A DNA stretch of 50,109 nt from Shigella phage pSf-2: the sequence record KP085586; one strand, written 5' to 3'. Made by a program: the position numbers and the translations under genes. The notes beneath the pieces were generated by a model. The model was given only the letters and a program-made list of their open reading frames with translations, did no database searches and was not told the DNA's origin. Of this stretch, positions 9,296-44,390 are shown one piece after another. Every line of letters starts with the position of its first letter. Within the stretch, counting starts at the first letter, position 1.

Positions 9296-11080
9296 ATGGC
9301 TTTATATCGACGCGGTACTGCATCAATGGATGCAGACGGAACGGTTCGCGGAACCGATACAAAATGGAAGGATCAGCTTGCTCTGATTCGAGTAGGTGCA
9401 ACTATCGTATTCCTGGAACAACCGATAAAGCTGGCTGTAATCAGCGATATCGTGAGCGACACTGAGTTAAAGGCTATCTCTACTGATGGTCAGACTGCCG
9501 CTGACGGTAAGTATGTGATCCTGCTTAACGATTCACTGACTGTTAACGGATTAGCTCAAAACGTTGCTGAGACGCTTCGATACTATCAAAGCAAAGAGAC
9601 TGAGATTGCGGCATCTATAGATCTGATAAATCAGCTTGATATGAATAAACTTGAGCAAATAGTTGCTGATGTGAATCAGGCGAAATCTGATTCTCAAGCT
9701 GCGCAAAATCAGGCTGAATTAGCGCGTGACGCAGCCAACGCTGCACGCGATGAAACTAACTCAATCAAGAATCAGACGCAACAGATTGTTGACGGTGCTG
9801 TCGGTAGCATCAATGCGGCGAAGGATCAGGCTATAACCGATGTGCAGCAAAAAGAAAATTCATCCATCACTCACATTGACTCAGAAGAAGCGGCGGCGAT
9901 TCAGGCAATTAATGACGCAAAAGGCGATCTGTCAGGTTACGTTAATGACGCTCAGACGGCAGCACAAACGGCGACCTCTGCAAAAAACGACGCTCAGGCA
10001 GCGCGTGACGATGCGGTAAGCTCAAAAGATGCGGCTGCGGTAAGTGCTCAAGAAGCAAAAGACGCAGCTAACAGCATCAATGCTGAAAATCTTTTAACTA
10101 AGGATGGCAATCTAGCTGGTCTTGAGGATAAAAAAGAGTCAAGAAAAAATATTGGGTTAGGTGAAAATGATGCTGTTAACTTTCTTACTATTAACACCAC
10201 TGGCGCTATAGGTGCAGGAAGGAATTCATGGGACGGTTCTAGCTGGGGTAGTCAGTCCATATTGTCATCATTGATGATTATGTCACCTGATGGAATATCT
10301 ACGCCAGGTATTTACGTCAGAAAAGAACGTAGCGATAATGGTTATGCTGGGGCTTTATTATTTTATGAGGGGGCAAACTACTTCGAGACTAACAATAGAT
10401 TCAGGGCCAATCAGTTTTTATGCCAGAAAACAGCTATGGGTTATAACCAGATGTGGTCTGCTTCATGCTTCCAGGGTAATGCTTACACCGCTGATAGTGG
10501 TGCTGAAAACTATCAATCACTTATTGCTGGATCGTGTGACACCAGAGGTCAGGGATACGCTGGCGGCGTAGCATTTGGCATGATGACTACGGGTAATCCT
10601 GAATGGCCCAGGGCACAAATATCAGTAGGCGCTCAAGATAGGGATGGAGTAGGCAATATTGGTCTGCAAATGCATTTCAGGTTTATGGCTTCAGGGCAAA
10701 TATCTTACGCTGGACCGCAAGTGGCTGGAAGTTTCCAACAGGTTCCGGCATCTGACAGAAATATAAAGCACAGCATAAAGGATGATGAATCAAGCATTGC
10801 ATACAACAACATAAAATCAATGAGATTTAGGAACTTTATATTTAACGATGATGAGCAAGAAAGGGTAAGGAGAGGTGTTATAGCTCAGGAGATAGAAGAG
10901 ATCGACAATCTATATGTTAAGAGAAGGGTGTATGAGAGCCACGAGCTAAACGGGCCAAAAGTTGAAAGGCTTGAGCTTGATACAACTCCTTTATTGCTTG
11001 ACACTATGAGAGCTTTACAGGATACAATAAAGAAAGTTGAAGAGTTACAAGAAGAGATAAAAATGTTGAAGTCCAAATGA
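9296..11080 (+). CDS. tail fibre protein with C-terminal intramolecular chaperone (peptidase S74-like) domain
   Basis: Ala/Gln-rich coiled N-part; C-terminal SDRNIKHSIK...GVIAQEIEEI autoproteolytic chaperone signature. Confidence 0.8.
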   Translation: MALYRRGTASMDADGTVRGTDTKWKDQLALIRVGATIVFLEQPIKLAVISDIVSDTELKAISTDGQTAADGKYVILLNDSLTVNGLAQNVAETLRYYQSKETEIAASIDLINQLDMNKLEQIVADVNQAKSDSQAAQNQAELARDAANAARDETNSIKNQTQQIVDGAVGSINAAKDQAITDVQQKENSSITHIDSEEAAAIQAINDAKGDLSGYVNDAQTAAQTATSAKNDAQAARDDAVSSKDAAAVSAQEAKDAANSINAENLLTKDGNLAGLEDKKESRKNIGLGENDAVNFLTINTTGAIGAGRNSWDGSSWGSQSILSSLMIMSPDGISTPGIYVRKERSDNGYAGALLFYEGANYFETNNRFRANQFLCQKTAMGYNQMWSASCFQGNAYTADSGAENYQSLIAGSCDTRGQGYAGGVAFGMMTTGNPEWPRAQISVGAQDRDGVGNIGLQMHFRFMASGQISYAGPQVAGSFQQVPASDRNIKHSIKDDESSIAYNNIKSMRFRNFIFNDDEQERVRRGVIAQEIEEIDNLYVKRRVYESHELNGPKVERLELDTTPLLLDTMRALQDTIKKVEELQEEIKMLKSK

Positions 11081-12295: not shown

Positions 12296-13360
12296 TTACT
12301 TATTTTGGTAACGCACCCATGATGGCGTTTCAAGTTCGATCTCGCTTGCGTCGCCAGCGTACCCAGGCCAAACATCCATTTCAGAGCAAGCCTTGTAAGT
12401 GTGGACTACGCTAATGTACTGGTTACGACCGATCCTGATTTGCTCCATAGTCATACGGTAAGCCAGTGCGATATAAGGCTCTTTTTTCTCCTGCGCAAGC
12501 AATCGAACTACGATCGGAATATCTTCCGGGAAGTTTCCTTCAAAAGCGCCAGCCTGGATTGCGCGACGTAGCAGGTCATGCTGCAATGCCATCTTCAGGT
12601 AATAGCCGTGATTGTATGCCAGTCTCGGGAACTCTAACGGGTTGGCGCTCATCGTAGTTTTGAAATCTGTGATAATCAGTGCTTCCGGGAAAATTACGTC
12701 TTCAAATACCGGATCACCATTCTCATCATAACCAGTCAGTACACGACCTGGTACATTCTCTTTGTAGTCCAGATGATCTAGTCGAACCTTAACCTTGACG
12801 CCGGATATTTCACCGAAGATTGAGATTTCACGCTGCGCTGTTTCGCTGTTGATGCACGCTTCATGATCGGGGTTCTGTTCAAGTATAGCTCTCATCTTCA
12901 TGCAGGCGTCGTATTTATCAGCGTCGACGAGTTTCTTTCCTTCAGCGCGCGCCTCAGCTTCTGCGATCAGTTCAATCAGGTATTGAACGTTAAGGTCTTC
13001 GCCACAATCAACCATCATTTTGATGAGGTCCGGGTACTGCTTACCGGATGTACCTTTCAGGCCAAAAGATTTTAATTTTGCTGCCAGCGCTGCCTGAGAA
13101 GTAATGAGATCTTTAAACTCTGCCGGAGCCGGACAACGCGCATACGATGCAGTAAACAGATCTCGGCTCTCAAAGTTGGTGTGCGACTGAGTGCCAAACT
13201 CCAGCGCTTTAGTCGTCTCGTTCTTCTTGAATCGCCAGTTAGCCGGGCAAGTCTGATAAATTTCTGCAAGGCTCGAACCGCTTACATACTCTGCCGCCCA
13301 ACCTTCGTTGCTATGATACTCGTCATTAGAAAGCTGACTTGATGTGAATACTTGGAACAT
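12296..13360 (-). CDS. PD-(D/E)XK family exonuclease (recombination exonuclease)
   Basis: VRLDHLD and IITDFKTT motifs; first gene of recombination operon. Confidence 0.55.
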   Translation of the reverse strand: MFQVFTSSQLSNDEYHSNEGWAAEYVSGSSLAEIYQTCPANWRFKKNETTKALEFGTQSHTNFESRDLFTASYARCPAPAEFKDLITSQAALAAKLKSFGLKGTSGKQYPDLIKMMVDCGEDLNVQYLIELIAEAEARAEGKKLVDADKYDACMKMRAILEQNPDHEACINSETAQREISIFGEISGVKVKVRLDHLDYKENVPGRVLTGYDENGDPVFEDVIFPEALIITDFKTTMSANPLEFPRLAYNHGYYLKMALQHDLLRRAIQAGAFEGNFPEDIPIVVRLLAQEKKEPYIALAYRMTMEQIRIGRNQYISVVHTYKACSEMDVWPGYAGDASEIELETPSWVRYQNK

Positions 13361-13391
13361 TGCGTTTATCTCCTTCGTTTACGATGAATCC

Positions 13392-13419
13392 ATTATAGCC
13401 ATTAACAGCGTTTAGTCAA
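13392..13419 (-). promoter_or_regulatory. sigma70-like promoter (TTGACT-16-TATAAT) for recombination operon
   Basis: Near-consensus hexamers 31 nt upstream of ATG 13360. Confidence 0.5.
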
Positions 13420-13639
13420 TCGGATACATGTAATTGGTGTGTAATAGCGTGTCTATATCGCTCAAGTTACAACCAGCATTAACGGAATCAATGGCTTAAG
13501 TCTATTTTTATGTGATGTCTACTGTGTAATACTTGTAACCGCTTTTTCTTAGAAATACAGGGATAGCTACAAGTAGAATCCATATTGATTAAATTTTGAA
13601 CATATATGATAGAAATTTGACGAATCAATCAAATCACCA

Positions 13640-13810
13640 GTTACACGATAGACAACTGTTACACAACAATAATTATATATATAAAGCTAAAATTAAATAT
13701 TATCTATCTATATATATTATATATAGTTTTTATCATATCCCTCTGCGGTCGGGTAGGGTGGATTTTGTAACACCCGTTCCGGTTACAAAAATAGACACCT
13801 GTTACACGAA
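13640..13810. repeat. AT-rich divergent control region with direct repeats TAGACAnCTGTTACAC (x2) and inverted repeat TTTTGTAAC-N10-GTTACAAAA
   Basis: Repeats at about 13644-13660 and 13790-13806; palindrome at about 13765-13792; (TA)n tract 13700-13725. Confidence 0.45.
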
Positions 13811-13828
13811 AAAATTGTAATCGCACTA

Positions 13829-13857
13829 TTGCAATAAAAGTAAATGCGACATACAAT
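13829..13857 (+). promoter_or_regulatory. sigma70-like promoter (TTGCAA-17-TACAAT) for lipoprotein gene
   Basis: Hexamers with 17-bp spacer, 29 nt before ATG 13887. Confidence 0.45.
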
Positions 13858-13886
13858 GCAATCACACTAACGACGAGGACATACAA

Positions 13887-14117
13887 ATGAAAAAGTTAAT
13901 CACCATTATCACCGCTGCATTCATCCTGACTGGTTGTGCTCAGAATCTTAAAAATGGCGACTGCGTTACTTACGCGTACGGCTCTTGCATGATGCGATTC
14001 GTTGATGGTAAAAAGGTTCCGGCTGGCGAAATTGACATGCGATTCAAAGGTCTGTCATCCGACGACGATCAGGGTAACTTTAGCGGCAAGGTATCAATCA
14101 AAACTAAAGAGTGGTAA
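13887..14117 (+). CDS. small lipoprotein, Cor-like superinfection-exclusion candidate
   Basis: Signal peptide with lipobox LTGC; 76 aa; lies next to J gene on opposite strand as cor does in FhuA-dependent phages. Confidence 0.55.
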   Translation: MKKLITIITAAFILTGCAQNLKNGDCVTYAYGSCMMRFVDGKKVPAGEIDMRFKGLSSDDDQGNFSGKVSIKTKEW

Positions 14118-14119
14118 TT

Positions 14120-15076
14120 ATGGGGCAAGGAATATACATAAATCTAAATGACGGTCGCCCGGCAATGGAGATAACTTCAGGGCTTCGCGCCCCGTCATGG
14201 TGCGGACCTATACAGGCTGACGGGGTTGATTCATCTGGATCGGTTTTTGATTTTGGTTTGCAAATGAGTCCAGGGTCTACTGCTTTTTGCCTTCCATCTC
14301 AGGCTATCTACATAGACGATATGGATTACATCCCGGAGGTGTATTATTTGACCAGTTTTCAGAAGGTCAATGATTCAACCGGACGAATAACGGTAGGTAA
14401 TTTTAACGGGCACGGTGGAAGGAGGATGAGATTTTATGGCAACTGTTACGAAATCCTCCCCGCTCAGGCTGGAAGTCAGGGGATACTTGTTAACGATTCA
14501 ACGAACTTCGCAGCGATACCGAATAACGCCAGATTGATGAGCGCTGCATTTGTTGGGGGTATTCAGGTTAACGGTCAGGCTCAGTTGCCAGTACAGGGCG
14601 TTCCTTTCGGTATGTGGGATAATCCAAACGTAACACTTGAATCTGACGGCAATACAATATGGTGCAGGGATGCAAACTATAACGGGATTGATGACGTTGG
14701 CGCGAGCGTATACGTTCAACTCGTAATATTTAATAACACCCCACCACCTCCCGGCCCTGGAATCACTATGAGCAATCCTGCTGGTCAGATCGTTTTCTCA
14801 AGCGTTCGACGTCCTTTTGTTCTCGGCGGGACTATGGCGATAAATGACGGGTGGCAGTGGTGCGGTGGATTTTTCCCAATACTGAGAACAGGTACGATAT
14901 GCAGAGTTACAGGTGGATATAATAACATTCGATACAAGGGCGTTTGCATGAGCGGCGGTAACGTGAGAAGCACACCCGGAACAAGGGTGGGTAACTATTC
15001 AACCCAAAGCGGAGCGCAATTCCCTTTCAATATAAACATTTCAATGCCAATTCCTTTCACTCCAAACATGTATTAA
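14120..15076 (+). CDS. hypothetical protein co-transcribed with lipoprotein (Gly/Asn-rich, PPPPGPG linker)
   Basis: ATG 14120 three nt after upstream TAA; track start 14111 is GTG; followed by bidirectional terminator. Confidence 0.55.
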   Translation: MGQGIYINLNDGRPAMEITSGLRAPSWCGPIQADGVDSSGSVFDFGLQMSPGSTAFCLPSQAIYIDDMDYIPEVYYLTSFQKVNDSTGRITVGNFNGHGGRRMRFYGNCYEILPAQAGSQGILVNDSTNFAAIPNNARLMSAAFVGGIQVNGQAQLPVQGVPFGMWDNPNVTLESDGNTIWCRDANYNGIDDVGASVYVQLVIFNNTPPPPGPGITMSNPAGQIVFSSVRRPFVLGGTMAINDGWQWCGGFFPILRTGTICRVTGGYNNIRYKGVCMSGGNVRSTPGTRVGNYSTQSGAQFPFNINISMPIPFTPNMY

Positions 15077-15100
15077 AAAAGGGGCCAATCGGCCCCTTTC
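15077..15100. terminator. bidirectional Rho-independent terminator
   Basis: aggggcc-aatc-ggcccct hairpin flanked by A-run and T-run. Confidence 0.6.
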
Positions 15101-15102
15101 TG

Positions 15103-18100
15103 TTACCAGACACCAACAACCACTCGACCACCGTTAGGTAGGTTAACCGTGATCCCGTTATTGTTTATCTGAACTGTGTTATTTGTTCCGTTAAATGCAA
15201 ACTCTCCGTTATTTGCGTAAATTCTACCCCTCACTGTTGCATTCATGAATGAAGCGTCGCCATTCTTGTTTATGGCCCATCCATTATTCCCATCCCAATT
15301 GTTAGATTGAATCCAGTTTCCAATCATGGCATTAGTAATAAATCCATCCTTGATGATCGCGCTACTTAAAATAACCTGACCATTCTCAACAACAAAAGGA
15401 TATTGAGTCTGACCATTCATTCCTGTCATGATGGCAAATCGTGACGCCTCGAATAAGATTTGCGCCTTAACCACAGCGCCTGAACCAATCAGAGACATAG
15501 CCATACCAGCACTGTATTCTTGGCCGTTATACTTCAGACCGAGCTTGACTCCGTACATTGCACCAGTCGAATCCGCATTGCTCCACGAATCAAGTTTTTG
15601 AGAAAGTGCCGCCTCATTATTCCCAAGCCTCGCGCTTAATGACAAGTCAGCTTGCGTTCTCGCCTCAGTCTCGTTTGCTATAGCCTCTCTGATATCAGTC
15701 AAACTTGCCTGAATATCATCACCAATCTCTGCCCTGAGTTGGTCAATTTCACGCGATAGCGCTCCGGTTTCAGTTGCGATAACTTCACGCAATTCGCTAT
15801 TGCTTGCGCTAATCTGATCACCAAAACTTGCCCTTAACTGCTCAACTGCTGTTACTCGCGCCTCAGTCTCATCAGCAATTAGCTTCAGTGATTTGGTGTA
15901 CTCTGCTTTTCGTTTTCCGTTCTCCTTCTTCATGTAGATCGCGTCTTTGTCATTAGCTAGAGCGTTCTCAATTGCTGCCTCTGCGTTCGCTGCGTTCTGC
16001 GCCGCGTTGTCGGTTGCGTTATCAACAAGCCACTCGTAACCCGGCGAGTTTTCGATATCGACAGAAATCTCTCCAATGATATCGTCAACGTTTGTTGATG
16101 CCATGCCTCTGACAAAATCAGTCCACTGAGACGCGTTACCGATCCTGTCAACCGTCCTTACCCGATACCACACAATATTCCCTCCCGGCATCGGTGAGTG
16201 ATAATACTCATGCTGCGGATACGGAATCAAAGAAAGCAAACTTGCGTTATCCACTGTTCCATCCGGTGACTGCTGCAACTCCGTATAGGCCGTATCTCCA
16301 GAACCATCAGAGAACCCCCATTTTGTACGGATACCAAAAACAACATCATCCGTAGCTGTAAGGTTAATCGGTCGGCCCGGTTCACCCTGTTTACCCGTCA
16401 ACGTTGCCGCGACGATATTTGACCAGCCTGAAGTTGTGCCAGAACCAGCGACGGAGCGCACGCGAACCTGATAGTTGCCAGCGTAAATCCCTTCAACATA
16501 AACCTCCTTGTTTGCCGTCTGCGGGACGTTCTGCCAGTTGCCGTTATCCTTTCGCCACTGGACGTCATAGAAAACTGCGTACGGTACTTTATCCCAGCTA
16601 ACAATCATCGTTTCTACGCTCATCCCCTGGACGATTCGTGACTCTGAGGACACTTGCACGTTTTCCGGTCTAGGGATCTGATCTGGTTCAACGATGCTCG
16701 TCGGTCGGTCGTCGATATTAACTCCGTAATCAATCTCATCGTACTTGTTAGGATCGTACTCCACCGCCGTTATTTTGTAGGTAAATTCCTCATCATCATC
16801 GCCCTTGTCGATTTTTGTCACGACGTACTGCTGTAACGCAATGTCGGTGCGGTCGATAGCGAATACCGTGTTAGGCTTCACAGGAAAGCCAAAGCCAATG
16901 TTAACCTCTATAGTCTTACCATCCGCACTAACACTTGATATTGTGCGCTTCACGGGCTTGCCATCTGGCTTATTTACGATAATAAAGTCACCCGCGCGTG
17001 CATCCACCCGGAACGGCAAGAAAATCTGACTACCGGATACTTCGAGCAAGCGCCCTGATAGGTTCATCGTCAAGTTACTTGACCAGAAGTTATCAGCTAT
17101 TGCCACAACATCTCCGATTGTCGGGATCATACCCTCAAGTCCGGTAGCGAAGTTTACCGTAGTGCTGCGGAGGTTAGTTTTCAGAATCCATCTCCCGCGT
17201 CGGTTGGCCTCGCTTCGACGTGTGCAGCCGATCGCTGTAATGCTCGTTACGTTGTTCCCGAACCGTAGAGTAGCCTCACGATCGAATACTGGCTCAACGT
17301 CCTGCTGATACATGTTTTGCTCGTCGTCAAACATCACATTACACGTCGTGTACATGCTCTTTTCGCTTGCAAACGTGTAGGAGAAGTCACCATTAACCAC
17401 GTTGTCGTTAGTGAAGATGTACGCAGGCTCACGCGGCCTATCGATGATTACCGAAATGCTTTCGCCATTCCAAAAGCTCATACCTCGAAAGATTGAGCAA
17501 ATATCTCGAATAACCTTGTAAGCGTCAGTCTGAGACTGGATTATCACGTCGCAAAGGTATCGAGGTTCCGTCCCGCCCTTCCCATCAGGAACCATCTGAT
17601 CGCAATATTGCGCAGCCTCGTAGAGCGCCCATTTATCGACAGCGATACCAAGCTCTTTCTGATCCAAGCCGTAACGCTGATTAATCATCAGGTCATAAAG
17701 AACCCACGCAGGATTATTCGTCCATGCTTTTTTGAAAGTGCCATCCCAATTGCCGTTGTATGTTCGCGATTCTGGGTCGTAGTTCGACGGAACGCTTACA
17801 ATCTTCCAGCGCTTACGAATTGAGATCGTAGGTAACTGGTTTGGGAACATCTTCGAATCGAACTCTACGAAAAGAAGACCAGTCAGAGGATATCGGAATT
17901 TGGCATCAATGACCTCGGCATAGCTTCTTACCTGGATTGCATCAACGACATTCGAGTCATTGGAATCAGGCGTCTTTCGAACAACTCTGAATATTACCTG
18001 ATTGTTGAAGTTAGGCAGGTTTACGCGACGGCTTCGATCATAACCTGACATTGTTTTACCTTCGATTACGTCAGTAAGAACAGTCTCAAACGAACCGCCA

Positions 18101-18552
18101 TCAACCGCTTGCTGCACCTCGTACTCAACTCGAACGCCGTTTTTATCACCATTGCTTTCAATTCGTACACCTCGAGGCATAAACATTTTGATGCGTATTG
18201 CCGATAGTGTTTTATTGGTTACTGAGATCGTGTATGGGTTATCGGTAGTAACCTCACGATTTACAGTTACCTCACTTGAGCTATCTTCCATGCCCTTGAT
18301 GTATTCCTGCGTCTGAGTTCCCGGCCTGAACTCAGCCCTTACCCCTTCGAAGTTGAATGATCCATCCTCGTTTTGCACCGGAACTGAGTTAAACATCAAC
18401 TGCTTTAGGCTGAATGTTTCGTCAATTTCACCATCAGATACAGCTAACAGGATCTTGATTTTGTTGATTGAGATTAGATTGTCCTCCATCTCAACTGGGT
18501 TATGAGGCTTCTGTGACCCACCTTTAGATCCGCTTATCACTTTTTTAATCAT
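15103..18552 (-). CDS. host specificity / central tail fibre protein (lambda J-like)
   Basis: 1149 aa, last gene of I-K-L-M tail-tip cluster, FN3-like segment, beta-rich C-terminus. Confidence 0.85.
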   Translation of the reverse strand: MIKKVISGSKGGSQKPHNPVEMEDNLISINKIKILLAVSDGEIDETFSLKQLMFNSVPVQNEDGSFNFEGVRAEFRPGTQTQEYIKGMEDSSSEVTVNREVTTDNPYTISVTNKTLSAIRIKMFMPRGVRIESNGDKNGVRVEYEVQQAVDGGSFETVLTDVIEGKTMSGYDRSRRVNLPNFNNQVIFRVVRKTPDSNDSNVVDAIQVRSYAEVIDAKFRYPLTGLLFVEFDSKMFPNQLPTISIRKRWKIVSVPSNYDPESRTYNGNWDGTFKKAWTNNPAWVLYDLMINQRYGLDQKELGIAVDKWALYEAAQYCDQMVPDGKGGTEPRYLCDVIIQSQTDAYKVIRDICSIFRGMSFWNGESISVIIDRPREPAYIFTNDNVVNGDFSYTFASEKSMYTTCNVMFDDEQNMYQQDVEPVFDREATLRFGNNVTSITAIGCTRRSEANRRGRWILKTNLRSTTVNFATGLEGMIPTIGDVVAIADNFWSSNLTMNLSGRLLEVSGSQIFLPFRVDARAGDFIIVNKPDGKPVKRTISSVSADGKTIEVNIGFGFPVKPNTVFAIDRTDIALQQYVVTKIDKGDDDEEFTYKITAVEYDPNKYDEIDYGVNIDDRPTSIVEPDQIPRPENVQVSSESRIVQGMSVETMIVSWDKVPYAVFYDVQWRKDNGNWQNVPQTANKEVYVEGIYAGNYQVRVRSVAGSGTTSGWSNIVAATLTGKQGEPGRPINLTATDDVVFGIRTKWGFSDGSGDTAYTELQQSPDGTVDNASLLSLIPYPQHEYYHSPMPGGNIVWYRVRTVDRIGNASQWTDFVRGMASTNVDDIIGEISVDIENSPGYEWLVDNATDNAAQNAANAEAAIENALANDKDAIYMKKENGKRKAEYTKSLKLIADETEARVTAVEQLRASFGDQISASNSELREVIATETGALSREIDQLRAEIGDDIQASLTDIREAIANETEARTQADLSLSARLGNNEAALSQKLDSWSNADSTGAMYGVKLGLKYNGQEYSAGMAMSLIGSGAVVKAQILFEASRFAIMTGMNGQTQYPFVVENGQVILSSAIIKDGFITNAMIGNWIQSNNWDGNNGWAINKNGDASFMNATVRGRIYANNGEFAFNGTNNTVQINNNGITVNLPNGGRVVVGVW

Positions 18553-44076: not shown

Positions 44077-44129
44077 TGCCTGCGAGCCAATTTTAAGCCG
44101 TGTAACATTTGTCTAGCTGTCTATAGCCA

Positions 44130-44390
44130 CTATAGAAATATATGGCTCTCAAAAAAAGTACTGTATATATAAACACTCAGATAGAAATATGCCAACAGTA
44201 CGCTAGACAATGTAAGACAGCTATACACAACTATTACAATATAATTATCTATATATATAAATAAAAAAAACACTATATATATTATATATATACATATATC
44301 TATATGTATATTGTGAGGCGTCACAGTGTGTATTTTTGTCACAAGTGCGATTCTAGACAAATATTACAGTCGTGACAAGTTAAAGTGTAA
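44130..44390. repeat. AT-rich tract with (TA)n/ATATA runs and TAGACA / GTCACAAG repeats; candidate origin or early control region
   Basis: Long ATATATA-type tracts at 44160-44320; repeated ctagacaa, gtcacaag/gtgacaag words. Confidence 0.45.

Follow-up and report, generated by a model that had tools for sequence, protein, structure and literature searches.

A predicted LptD-type host-recognition cassette beside the J-like tail gene of Shigella phage pSf-2

The closest described counterparts of the locus are two proteins solved on LptDE: the receptor-binding protein (RBP) bas18_0025 of phage Oekolampad (Bas18; PDB 9RPT/9RPW/9RQI; Dunbar et al. 2025, PMC12685063) and the lipoprotein Rtp45 of phage Rtp (PDB 9RPS chain D), in which Cys30-Cys38 is a disulfide (PMC12685063). 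LptD dependence of Bas01, Bas18 and Bas20 was shown genetically (PMC8594841), and vB_EcoS_OzMSK (MSK) no longer infects when a loop of LptD has been deleted by engineering (PMC13035648). The tested members of the RBP family (33-96% pairwise identity, five taxa) are LptD-dependent "without exception". Three RBP subgroups, differing in putative LptD-contacting loops, were distinguished, and the protein of Shigella phage SH6 was already modelled and placed among the predicted LptD binders (Black et al. 2025, PMC13035648).

Two FhuA systems follow the same logic of an RBP with a receptor-blocking lipoprotein. In the datasets examined, the tested Tunavirus members T1 and Bas13 use FhuA; the T1 module comprises ST32, ST31 and cor. 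Phage T5 carries the monomeric RBP pb5 (oad) on a straight central fibre and the small periplasmic, receptor-disabling lipoprotein Llp (cited as 8A8C for pb5-FhuA and 8A60 for Llp-FhuA). Llp acts by allostery on a TonB-dependent transporter, Rtp45 by steric loop displacement.

The 50,109-nt sequence of Shigella phage pSf-2 (record KP085586), referred to as the window, is that of a T1-like Tunavirus, and the locus is 93-97% identical to those of Shigella phages ISF002, SH6, Sfin-1 and Shfl1. Two co-oriented plus-strand genes lie between the minus-strand recE-like and J-like genes, as had been described in the first-pass annotation of this DNA, which reported a rightward two-gene unit adjoining the J-like gene and opposed to its neighbours. 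Together they very probably constitute the known LptD-type host-recognition module of small siphoviruses, here in a T1-like Tunavirus. The features of the locus are as follows.

12296-13360, minus strand: exonuclease VIII/recE-like gene, flanking the cassette
13361-13886, plus strand: AT-rich intergenic region (526 nt, 33% GC), also found upstream of cor in T1
13792-13821, plus strand: promoter candidate TAGACA-N18-TGTAAT
13829-13857, plus strand: promoter candidate TTGCAA-N17-TACAAT, 9/12 consensus positions
13875-13879, plus strand: Shine-Dalgarno sequence GAGGA upstream of the lipoprotein start
13887-14117, plus strand: lipoprotein gene, 76 aa
14120-15076, plus strand: 318-aa gene, DUF6453 RBP of the LptD-targeting family of small siphoviruses
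15078-15099, both strands: bidirectional intrinsic-terminator hairpin, core GGGGCC-AATC-GGCCCC at 15081-15096 with A/U-pair extension
15103-18552, minus strand: J-like central tail fibre/tail-tip gene, 1149 aa
15106-15298, minus strand: C-terminal tip of J, about 65 residues; T1 homology stops at 15299

In the open reading frame listing, the second gene opens at GTG 14111. The ATG at 14120, 2 nt after the lipoprotein stop codon (14115-14117), yields the 318 aa noted earlier and is backed by the homologues, all of which begin at the equivalent M-x-x-G-I. Both genes are real and under purifying selection: in comparisons with pSf-1 and Shfl1, the 318-aa gene had a dN/dS of 0.02-0.03 and the lipoprotein gene one of 0.03-0.28. 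The same order and orientation (lipoprotein, RBP, convergent with J) is present in Oekolampad, Bas01 (AugustePiccard), Rtp and AHP42.

The 318-aa protein had been described as lacking a recognisable domain. It matched PF20051 (DUF6453) at 2.8e-126 (421 bits, cut-off 25), with residues 4-295 aligned to profile positions 1-291, and Rtp44 and the Oekolampad RBP matched the same family models (PF20051/phrog_1265). Over its full length, the protein is homologous to the LptDE-bound Oekolampad RBP (PDB 9RPT_C, E 1.6e-65). Structure prediction, which the first-pass annotation had suggested for this protein, gave an AF2 model with pLDDT 83.9 and pTM 0.82, predicted all-beta and soluble. In a Foldseek search with this model, 9RPT_C was the sole significant PDB match (E 6.3e-20, target-normalised TM 0.91, rmsd 2.6 A). 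Identity was 98% to the SH6 orthologue (ORF49), 68.1% over 318 aa to the OzMSK RBP, 41% to the solved Oekolampad RBP and 39-41% to the RBPs of Bas01, Bas18 and Bas20, which places the protein in the Rogue1/OzMSK-like branch (68-69%). The likeness to the Oekolampad RBP extends to the position and orientation of the gene relative to J and the lipoprotein gene and to the conserved N-terminus; the two differ in overall sequence (41% identity) and in branch. OzMSK is an Rtp/Rogue1-like phage with LptD dependence shown by receptor engineering, whereas for the pSf-2 allele it is predicted.

The protein is rich in Gly (13.2%) and Asn (8.5%) compared with the long open reading frames of the window (7.3% and 5.0%), in agreement with the earlier description. 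The reported PPPPGPG is present at residues 208-214; rather than an idiosyncratic linker, it is part of the family-conserved motif IFNNTPPxPGxGI, also seen in Oekolampad, in which P209 and G214 are invariant and G212 is nearly invariant across 51 aligned family sequences. The label "membrane protein" given by RefSeq and PHROG was rejected, as neither a hydrophobic or transmembrane segment (maximum Kyte-Doolittle value of 0.99 in a 19-residue window) nor a signal peptide was found in the predicted all-beta, soluble protein. Judged by homology and modelled fold, the protein is the RBP itself. The part in receptor binding suspected earlier is thus kept, and the proposed roles of accessory or second exclusion factor are not. 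In LC-MS/MS of SH6 virions, ORF48 (J) and ORF54 (lateral fibre) were listed and the RBP orthologue ORF49 was not, which was counted against the reading as an LptD cassette; a low-copy protein could escape detection.

The lipoprotein starts with MKKLITIITAAFILTGC; its signal peptide and lipobox (L-T-G-C17) are encoded at 13887-13937, and Pfam LPAM_1 matched with 21.2 bits (cut-off 20). The residue at +2, after Cys17, is Ala, and by the +2 rule the protein would be sorted to the outer membrane. Matches were obtained to PF24052 (1.7e-24, 86 bits, cut-off 27), to phrog_4281 (6e-37, 126 bits, residues 1-76) and, in a PDB-wide phmmer search, to 9RPS_D, Rtp45 on LptDE (E 4.1e-9). Identity was 68% to the superinfection-exclusion (SE) protein bas18_0026 of Oekolampad (68-70% in the mature part) and 41% to Rtp45. 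In the mature part, Cys26/Cys34 align with Rtp45 Cys30-Cys38, the motif VPAGEIDMRF retains the conserved VPAGE-D-R hairpin motif, and G41, V44, A46, G47, D50 and R52 are invariant in five aligned lipoprotein sequences. As for Rtp45, the gene lies immediately upstream of the RBP gene; the pSf-2 protein differs in being closer to the Oekolampad SE protein and in its T1-Cor-type signal peptide. A single-sequence AF2 model of the mature lipoprotein (pLDDT 53.3) was too poor to use, and poor structure predictions for this family were also reported by the authors of the Rtp45 structure. By analogy, the protein is predicted to be an Rtp45-type superinfection-exclusion lipoprotein that would block LptD from the periplasm, which preserves the earlier view of a receptor-blocking factor.

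In the PDB-wide phmmer searches, 9RPT_C and 9RPS_D were the only significant matches, and no FhuA-complex or T5 chains were retrieved with the 318-aa protein and the lipoprotein (E limits of 1 and 10). The resemblance to T5 pb5 and Llp is a functional analogy, with no sequence similarity to the pSf-2 pair.

The lipoprotein had been assigned to the Cor/Llp type. Membership in the Cor family (phrog_1119; FhuA-blocking in T1, phi80 and N15) was rejected, since the likeness is confined to the signal peptide, which is identical to that of T1 Cor in 16 of 17 residues; the mature parts are not alignable. The Cor profile matched residues 1-33 only (25 bits; T1 Cor 105 bits over its full length), and BLASTP against T1 Cor gave 43% over 53 residues. 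T1 Cor scored below the PF24052 cut-off, and Rtp45 and the Oekolampad SE protein share PF24052/phrog_4281 with the pSf-2 protein, which belongs there over its whole length.

For comparison with T1, nucleotide homology was followed across the locus. The region 13361-13886 is 94% identical to the recE-cor intergenic region of T1, and homology ends at nt 13936, in the lipobox. It resumes within J: the pSf-2 J protein is 93% identical to T1 J except for its tip and a 33-aa repeat. The tip, ...FAFNGTNNTVQINNNGITVNLPNGGRVVVGVW, is common to Rtp, Bas01, AHP42, Oekolampad and pSf-1 (last ~55 residues) and unlike that of T1; it travels with the LptD cassette and is presumed to be the docking site of the RBP. 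With T1 ST32 and ST31 as tblastn queries, nothing below E 1 was found in the window. Relative to T1, the FhuA module has been replaced by a block that comprises the mature lipoprotein, RBP and terminator together with the last ~65 J residues. Common to both phages are the slot between J and recE, the upstream region and the lipoprotein signal peptide, whereas the mature proteins are unrelated and the receptor is FhuA in T1 and predicted to be LptD in pSf-2. In T1 the RBP genes run with J and cor runs opposite, whereas in pSf-2 both genes are opposite to J. The term "moron" used earlier fits poorly, as this is an allelic replacement of the T1 host-recognition module and not an addition. The resulting cassette is a mosaic, with an RBP of Rogue1/OzMSK type, a mature exclusion protein resembling that of Oekolampad, and the signal peptide and promoter of T1 Cor.

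The first-pass annotation had given the unit its own promoter and a bidirectional terminator. The terminator was confirmed: the hairpin occupies the 26-nt gap separating the convergent RBP and J stop codons, folds with -17.7 kcal/mol on the plus strand (z -3.6) and -19.2 on the minus strand (z -4.1), and is annotated as a bidirectional terminator in the relatives SA32RD and AHP42. It was missed by the consensus terminator scan because the stem extension consumes the T run, and was found by direct folding. A cassette promoter must lie within 13361-13886, and its exact position is given by the listed candidates only, as promoter-like matches around the cassette were at chance level in the consensus scan (6 found, 5.3 +/- 2.1 expected). 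Alignment of the upstream regions was uninformative for the promoter, the Tunavirus relatives being too similar; those of pSf-1 and AHP42 agree in matching columns only in a -10-like T-A-x-A-x-T.

Because a cassette of LptD type has replaced the FhuA module of T1, the receptor of the pSf-2 allele is predicted to be LptD and not the FhuA implied earlier; the type of RBP, lipoprotein and J tip points to the same receptor. By analogy, the cassette would carry the terminal receptor specificity of the phage. The analysis shows family membership, the fold of the RBP, synteny, recombination boundaries and purifying selection; with the solved homologues as a guide for LptD binding, exclusion and docking on J, the following course is proposed. 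The two genes would be transcribed together, starting in the region that supplies the cor promoter in T1 and stopping at the hairpin common with J. The RBP would be made without a signal peptide and attach non-covalently to the C-terminal tip of J via its conserved N-terminal/base region; its distal loops would enter the LptDE lipopolysaccharide translocon at its extracellular mouth, and this insertion would make adsorption irreversible and trigger DNA ejection. The lipoprotein would be exported, receive its lipid at Cys17 and, given the Ala at +2, reach the outer membrane and reside in its inner leaflet. There it would bind LptD from the periplasmic face, as Rtp45 does, and a disulfide-stapled beta-hairpin of the lipoprotein would rise through the barrel and displace extracellular loop 4. 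LptD blocked in this way would be unusable for pSf-2 and other LptD-dependent phages, which would guard the infected cell from superinfection and the progeny from loss on cell debris. That an early-acting exclusion factor would share its transcript with a late structural protein was counted against the reading as an LptD cassette.

Other readings of the locus were weighed. The pSf-2 allele may have kept the family and architecture yet diverged in specificity, so that its target is another outer-membrane protein or its mode or state of LptD binding is distinctly different. Room for this is left by identities of only 41% with the solved RBP and 68% with its closest validated counterpart (the latter also counted against the LptD reading), by the family alignment, least conserved at residues 21-100 and 241-300, and by the three loop subgroups of Black et al. 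(also counted against the LptD reading; PMC13035648). The Sfin-1, SH6 and BASEL papers and a 2026 receptor-screen preprint likewise yielded no receptor genetics or other direct receptor data for a pSf-2-type allele; this, together with FhuA use by the tested Tunavirus members T1 and Bas13, was counted against the LptD reading too. So was the adsorption of Sfin-1, described in the Sfin-1 paper as periodate-sensitive and proteinase-K-insensitive, although such treatments probe the O-antigen step and say nothing about a barrel protein. A change of receptor is nevertheless quite unlikely, given that every tested family member depends on LptD over the range of identities and taxa stated above, that J ends in the tip seen in LptD phages, and that the co-encoded lipoprotein, which necessarily acts on the same receptor, is a homologue of Rtp45 and 68% identical to that of Oekolampad. 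A related proposal concerns the mosaic itself: its combination of parts may have shifted specificity to another outer-membrane protein or to an LptDE state other than the open state of Oekolampad, or else exclusion proteins and RBPs of LptD modules may be freely interchangeable, implying broad cross-exclusion among LptD phages. This, too, is unlikely.

The lipoprotein could also be a generic phage lipoprotein (e.g. lysis-related or spanin-like), with only the 318-aa gene relevant to host range. Kuravirus podophages also have homologues, which are not located near an RBP gene, and exclusion by the pSf-2 protein is a prediction by analogy. The tight linkage to the DUF6453 RBP gene in siphoviruses, here at a distance of 2 nt, the homology to a protein solved in complex with LptDE and the purifying selection on the gene make this very improbable. 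Least probable, to the point of being nearly dismissed, is a dispensable moron composed of a Cor/Llp-type FhuA-blocking lipoprotein and a domain-less accessory or second exclusion factor. It draws on the BLASTP alignment to T1 Cor and the weak phrog_1119 match, on the same Cor comparison made in the SH6 paper, and on the labels "membrane protein" and "moron" given to the partner by PHROG and RefSeq. It is opposed by the restriction of the Cor likeness to the signal peptide and of the Cor profile to residues 1-33, with T1 homology lost at nt 13936; by the failure of T1 Cor at the PF24052 cut-off; by the absence of ST31 and ST32 from the window; and by a partner that has no signal peptide or transmembrane segment and is modelled with the fold of a solved RBP. 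As the predicted receptor is LptD, testing the two genes against FhuA-dependent phages, as the first-pass annotation had proposed, would be expected to give a negative result for the wrong reason.

The LptD-type cassette is an already known, ordinary module and not a new accessory system, and the practical value of the analysis lies in its correct annotation. In the records examined, the genes carry the names "hypothetical protein", "membrane protein" or "Cor superinfection exclusion protein", which invites the mistaken expectation that FhuA is the receptor of Shigella and E. coli phages of the pSf-2/SH6/Sfin-1 group. An LptD module would instead predict that the target of these Shigella phages, which are candidates for therapy, is an outer-membrane protein both essential and conserved, that resistance would arise via small in-frame lptD loop deletions and not via receptor loss, and that cross-exclusion and common resistance would be met with other LptD phages in a cocktail. 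For receptor swaps in T1-like phages, the mapped exchange unit from the lipobox to the J tip should be useful in engineering.

The two-gene cassette beside the J-like tail-tip gene is very probably an LptD host-recognition module, as judged from comparative analysis of its two products. Two rightward genes between leftward neighbours had been proposed by the first-pass annotation at 13887-15076, and these coordinates proved exact on ORF checking. The elements of the locus were as follows.

12296-13360, minus strand, exonuclease VIII/recE-like gene, neighbour of the cassette
13887-14117, plus strand, lipoprotein gene, 76 aa, with typical signal peptide and lipobox (MKKLITIITAAFILTG-C17)
14120-15076, plus strand, gene of the receptor-binding protein (RBP), 318 aa from ATG 14120, 2 nt past the lipoprotein stop
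26-nt gap between the convergent stop codons, hairpin GGGGCC-AATC-GGCCCC with A and T runs on either side
15103-18552, minus strand, J-like tail-tip gene (J), 1149 aa, neighbour of the cassette

The ORF listing places the RBP start at GTG 14111, upstream of ATG 14120; the latter was used because all homologues open with an equivalent M-x-x-G-I.

The 318-aa protein had been described as lacking any recognisable domain, which did not hold: PF20051 (DUF6453) matched over its full length (E 2.8e-126). Against all PDB sequences, the sole significant match was 9RPT chain C (E 1.6e-65, residues 1-318), from the cryo-EM structure in which the RBP of Oekolampad phage (Bas18) is bound to the Shigella flexneri LptDE lipopolysaccharide translocon (PMC12685063). 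Structure prediction, a check suggested at first pass, was performed with AlphaFold2 using an alignment of 51 homologues and yielded an all-beta model (pLDDT 83.9, pTM 0.82). In a Foldseek search of the PDB with this model, 9RPT_C was again the only significant match (E 6.3e-20; target-normalised TM 0.91, rmsd 2.6 A; next match E 0.2). Of the two roles offered for the protein, receptor-binding accessory or second exclusion factor, the link to the receptor thus stood, as the RBP itself. Its Gly/Asn-rich composition was confirmed (Gly 13.2% and Asn 8.5% vs 7.3% and 5.0% in the long ORFs of the window). The PPPPGPG stretch is present and falls within a family-conserved motif, IFNNTPPxPGxGI; residues 1-20 form the most conserved block of the family alignment. 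Neither signal peptide nor hydrophobic segment was found in the RBP sequence, and the RefSeq/PHROGs label 'membrane protein' is therefore unsupported.

The lipoprotein had been assigned to the receptor-blocking Cor type. Its prediction as a superinfection exclusion (SE) lipoprotein was supported by profile searches, which placed it in PF24052 and phrog_4281. Its resemblance to Cor, judged by sequence, is real but local, being confined to the signal peptide.

Profile matches of the lipoprotein and related exclusion proteins
Protein; phrog_1119 (Cor); PF24052; phrog_4281
Window lipoprotein; residues 1-33 only, 25 bits; 86 bits (cut-off 27); 126 bits, full length
T1 Cor; 105 bits, full length; 17.7 bits, under cut-off; no match
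Rtp45; no match; 128 bits; 112.8 bits
Oekolampad SE protein; residues 1-30 only, 21 bits; 76 bits; 115.1 bits

The sole significant PDB match of the lipoprotein was 9RPS chain D (E 4e-9), which is Rtp45, the SE lipoprotein of phage Rtp, solved on the periplasmic side of LptDE (PMC12685063). Cys26/Cys34 align with the Cys30-Cys38 disulfide of Rtp45, the hairpin motif VPAGE-D-R is kept, and in its mature part about 68-70% of residues are shared with bas18_0026, the SE protein of Oekolampad. A Cor lipoprotein acting at FhuA with an accessory partner, as the first-pass annotation implied, would agree with the signal peptide, identical to that of T1 Cor at 16/17 residues, and with the '45% identity to T1 Cor' noted in the SH6 genome paper. 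Beyond the lipobox cysteine the two proteins are unrelated, and the whole window lacks counterparts of ST32 and ST31, the other two genes of the T1 FhuA cassette; together with the Rtp45-type lipoprotein and the LptD-family RBP, this makes the Cor/FhuA reading highly improbable.

For LptD, dependence has been found in every experimentally tested member of the RBP family (Maffei et al. 2021, PMC8594841; 2026 preprint), and OzMSK, whose RBP is the nearest validated member (68.1% identity), is blocked by an engineered LptD loop-11 deletion (PMC13035648). The linked lipoprotein is an independent pointer to the same receptor. A model of the SH6 orthologue of the RBP (98% identity) has been published by Black et al. 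(PMC13035648), who list this protein as a predicted LptD binder; the RBP is not among the proteins listed in SH6 virion proteomics. A shift of specificity within the RBP family, set against these tested members, appears unlikely, if less so than the Cor/FhuA reading. Adsorption of Sfin-1 is periodate-sensitive and proteinase-K-insensitive, which most likely reflects a lateral-fibre/O-antigen step. The lateral tail fibre gene (9296-11080, plus strand, 594 aa) encodes a C-terminal Peptidase_S74 intramolecular chaperone domain, and the fibre is a second, separate host-recognition determinant that probably serves the O-antigen step.

The order lipoprotein-RBP, convergent with J, is common to Oekolampad (Dhillonvirus), AugustePiccard and Rtp (Braunvirinae) and AHP42 (Rogunavirus), and was described by Maffei et al. 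2021 (PMC8594841) as the 'bona fide RBP locus downstream of gpJ', whose alleles track the receptor (FhuA, BtuB, YncD, LptD) in small siphoviruses. This association was upheld in a 2026 screen of 255 phages (preprint). The label 'moron' was dropped for that of a known module replacing the T1 block. Homology to T1 (94% nt) extends from recE across the full intergenic region and 50 nt into the lipoprotein gene, ends at 13936, and restarts at 15299 within J (~residue 1085). The exchanged block is therefore 13937-15298, with the mature part of the SE protein, the RBP, the terminator and the C-terminal ~65 residues of J inside it. The J tip (...FAFNGTNNTVQINNNGITVNLPNGGRVVVGVW) is common to Rtp, Bas01, AHP42, Oekolampad and pSf-1 and unlike that of T1, which fits the co-variation of the GpJ C-terminal tip with the locus-encoded RBP reported in the 2026 preprint. 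Up to the tip, J is otherwise 93% identical to T1 J; one copy of a 33-residue tandem repeat (REVIATETEALSREIDQLKAQIGDDIQASLTDI) is absent at ~residue 921, in a coiled-coil-like region.

The lipoprotein gene is chimeric, with a T1-cor-like signal peptide (T1 cor 15851-15802 vs window 13887-13936) and an Oekolampad/Rtp45-like mature part, and its recombination junction is the lipobox. The cassette itself is a mosaic: identity of the RBP is 69% to that of AHP42 and 41% to that of Oekolampad, whereas the lipoprotein has the opposite pattern (37% and 68%, respectively). Such discordant ancestry implies that recombination has separated the two genes, and it suggests interchangeability of exclusion proteins among LptD modules. 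Hanrivervirus pSf-1 holds nearly the same cassette, its RBP being 97.5% identical in protein and 89% in DNA, a pattern that indicates horizontal transfer and then strong constraint. At the locus, T1-like Tunavirus phages ISF002, SA32RD, SH6, Sfin-1 and Shfl1 are 93-97% identical to the window. Both genes are under purifying selection, dN/dS relative to pSf-1 and Shfl1 being 0.02-0.03 (RBP) and 0.03-0.28 (lipoprotein).

With the families of both proteins, the RBP fold, synteny, recombination boundaries and purifying selection obtained directly, the mechanism was drawn from the solved homologues. The RBP would dock on the J tip via its highly conserved N-terminal/base region; invariant residues lie at the base (Black et al., PMC13035648), and the phage-proximal part of the Oekolampad RBP is disordered in the cryo-EM map (PMC12685063). 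Entry of the distal end into the LptDE barrel would then commit the virion to ejecting its DNA. The lipoprotein would be lipidated at Cys17, sorted to the outer membrane through Ala at +2, and bound to LptD between LptE and LptM, where its hairpin would displace extracellular loop 4 outward and RBP binding would be lost. An early-needed exclusion factor and a late-needed structural protein would share one transcript, from the region that holds the cor promoter in T1.

The predicted bidirectional terminator was borne out by the hairpin (-17.7 kcal/mol, z -3.6, plus strand; -19.2, z -4.1, minus strand), which is so annotated in records of relatives. The weakest element of the original observation is the sigma70-like promoter: a candidate, TTGCAA-17-TACAAT (13829-13857), matches 9/12 consensus positions, but in a consensus scan such matches were no more frequent than chance in the AT-rich upstream region. 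Another candidate, TAGACA-18-TGTAAT (13792-13821), was annotated by another group in a relative. Upstream of the cassette, a 17-nt motif, ATAGACAnCTGTTACAC, occurs in two exact copies 143 nt apart (13648-13664 and 13791-13807), with degenerate copies at 44100-44116 (minus strand) and 44223-44239 (plus strand) in another long, AT-rich stretch between genes (~44.1-44.3 kb); 4 matches were found vs 0.34 expected. Because it includes the -35-like TAGACA, it may be a common promoter or operator element.

The module was already known, recognised genetically in 2021 and structurally in 2025, with the allele of the window named as a predicted member; the small additions made here are the precise limits of the exchange (lipobox to J tip) and the finding that lipoprotein and RBP differ in ancestry. 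Public records are inconsistent, the RBP appearing as 'membrane protein' or 'hypothetical protein' and the lipoprotein sometimes as 'Cor superinfection exclusion protein'. In vB_SsoS_008 (MK335533, 1097-1860; 83% nt identity) the annotation shows two short hypothetical ORFs in place of the lipoprotein and RBP genes, which suggests frameshifts, sequencing errors or a degraded cassette. Near-identical E. coli-type cassettes in phage records named Pseudomonas (PsgS01F), Campylobacter (A134, A121) and Acinetobacter (NJ01) look like contaminants or cases of a wrongly assigned host.

Chromosomes of E. coli, Salmonella and Citrobacter commonly carry DUF6453 homologues (40-47% identity), as does the temperate phage mEp021 (MH706966, 51744-52852); in a prophage, the linked lipoprotein gene could provide exclusion as a true case of lysogenic conversion. 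The LptD-type exclusion lipoprotein also has homologues in the phiEco32-like podophages (Kuravirus) ES17, SU7, Bas89, Bas93, Bas94 and NJ01 (34-47% identity, mature part); in phiEco32 (EU330206, 3941-4222) the gene belongs to an early cluster of small genes, and no DUF6453 gene is close by. LptD could be relevant to these phages, or they could exclude LptD-dependent competitors.
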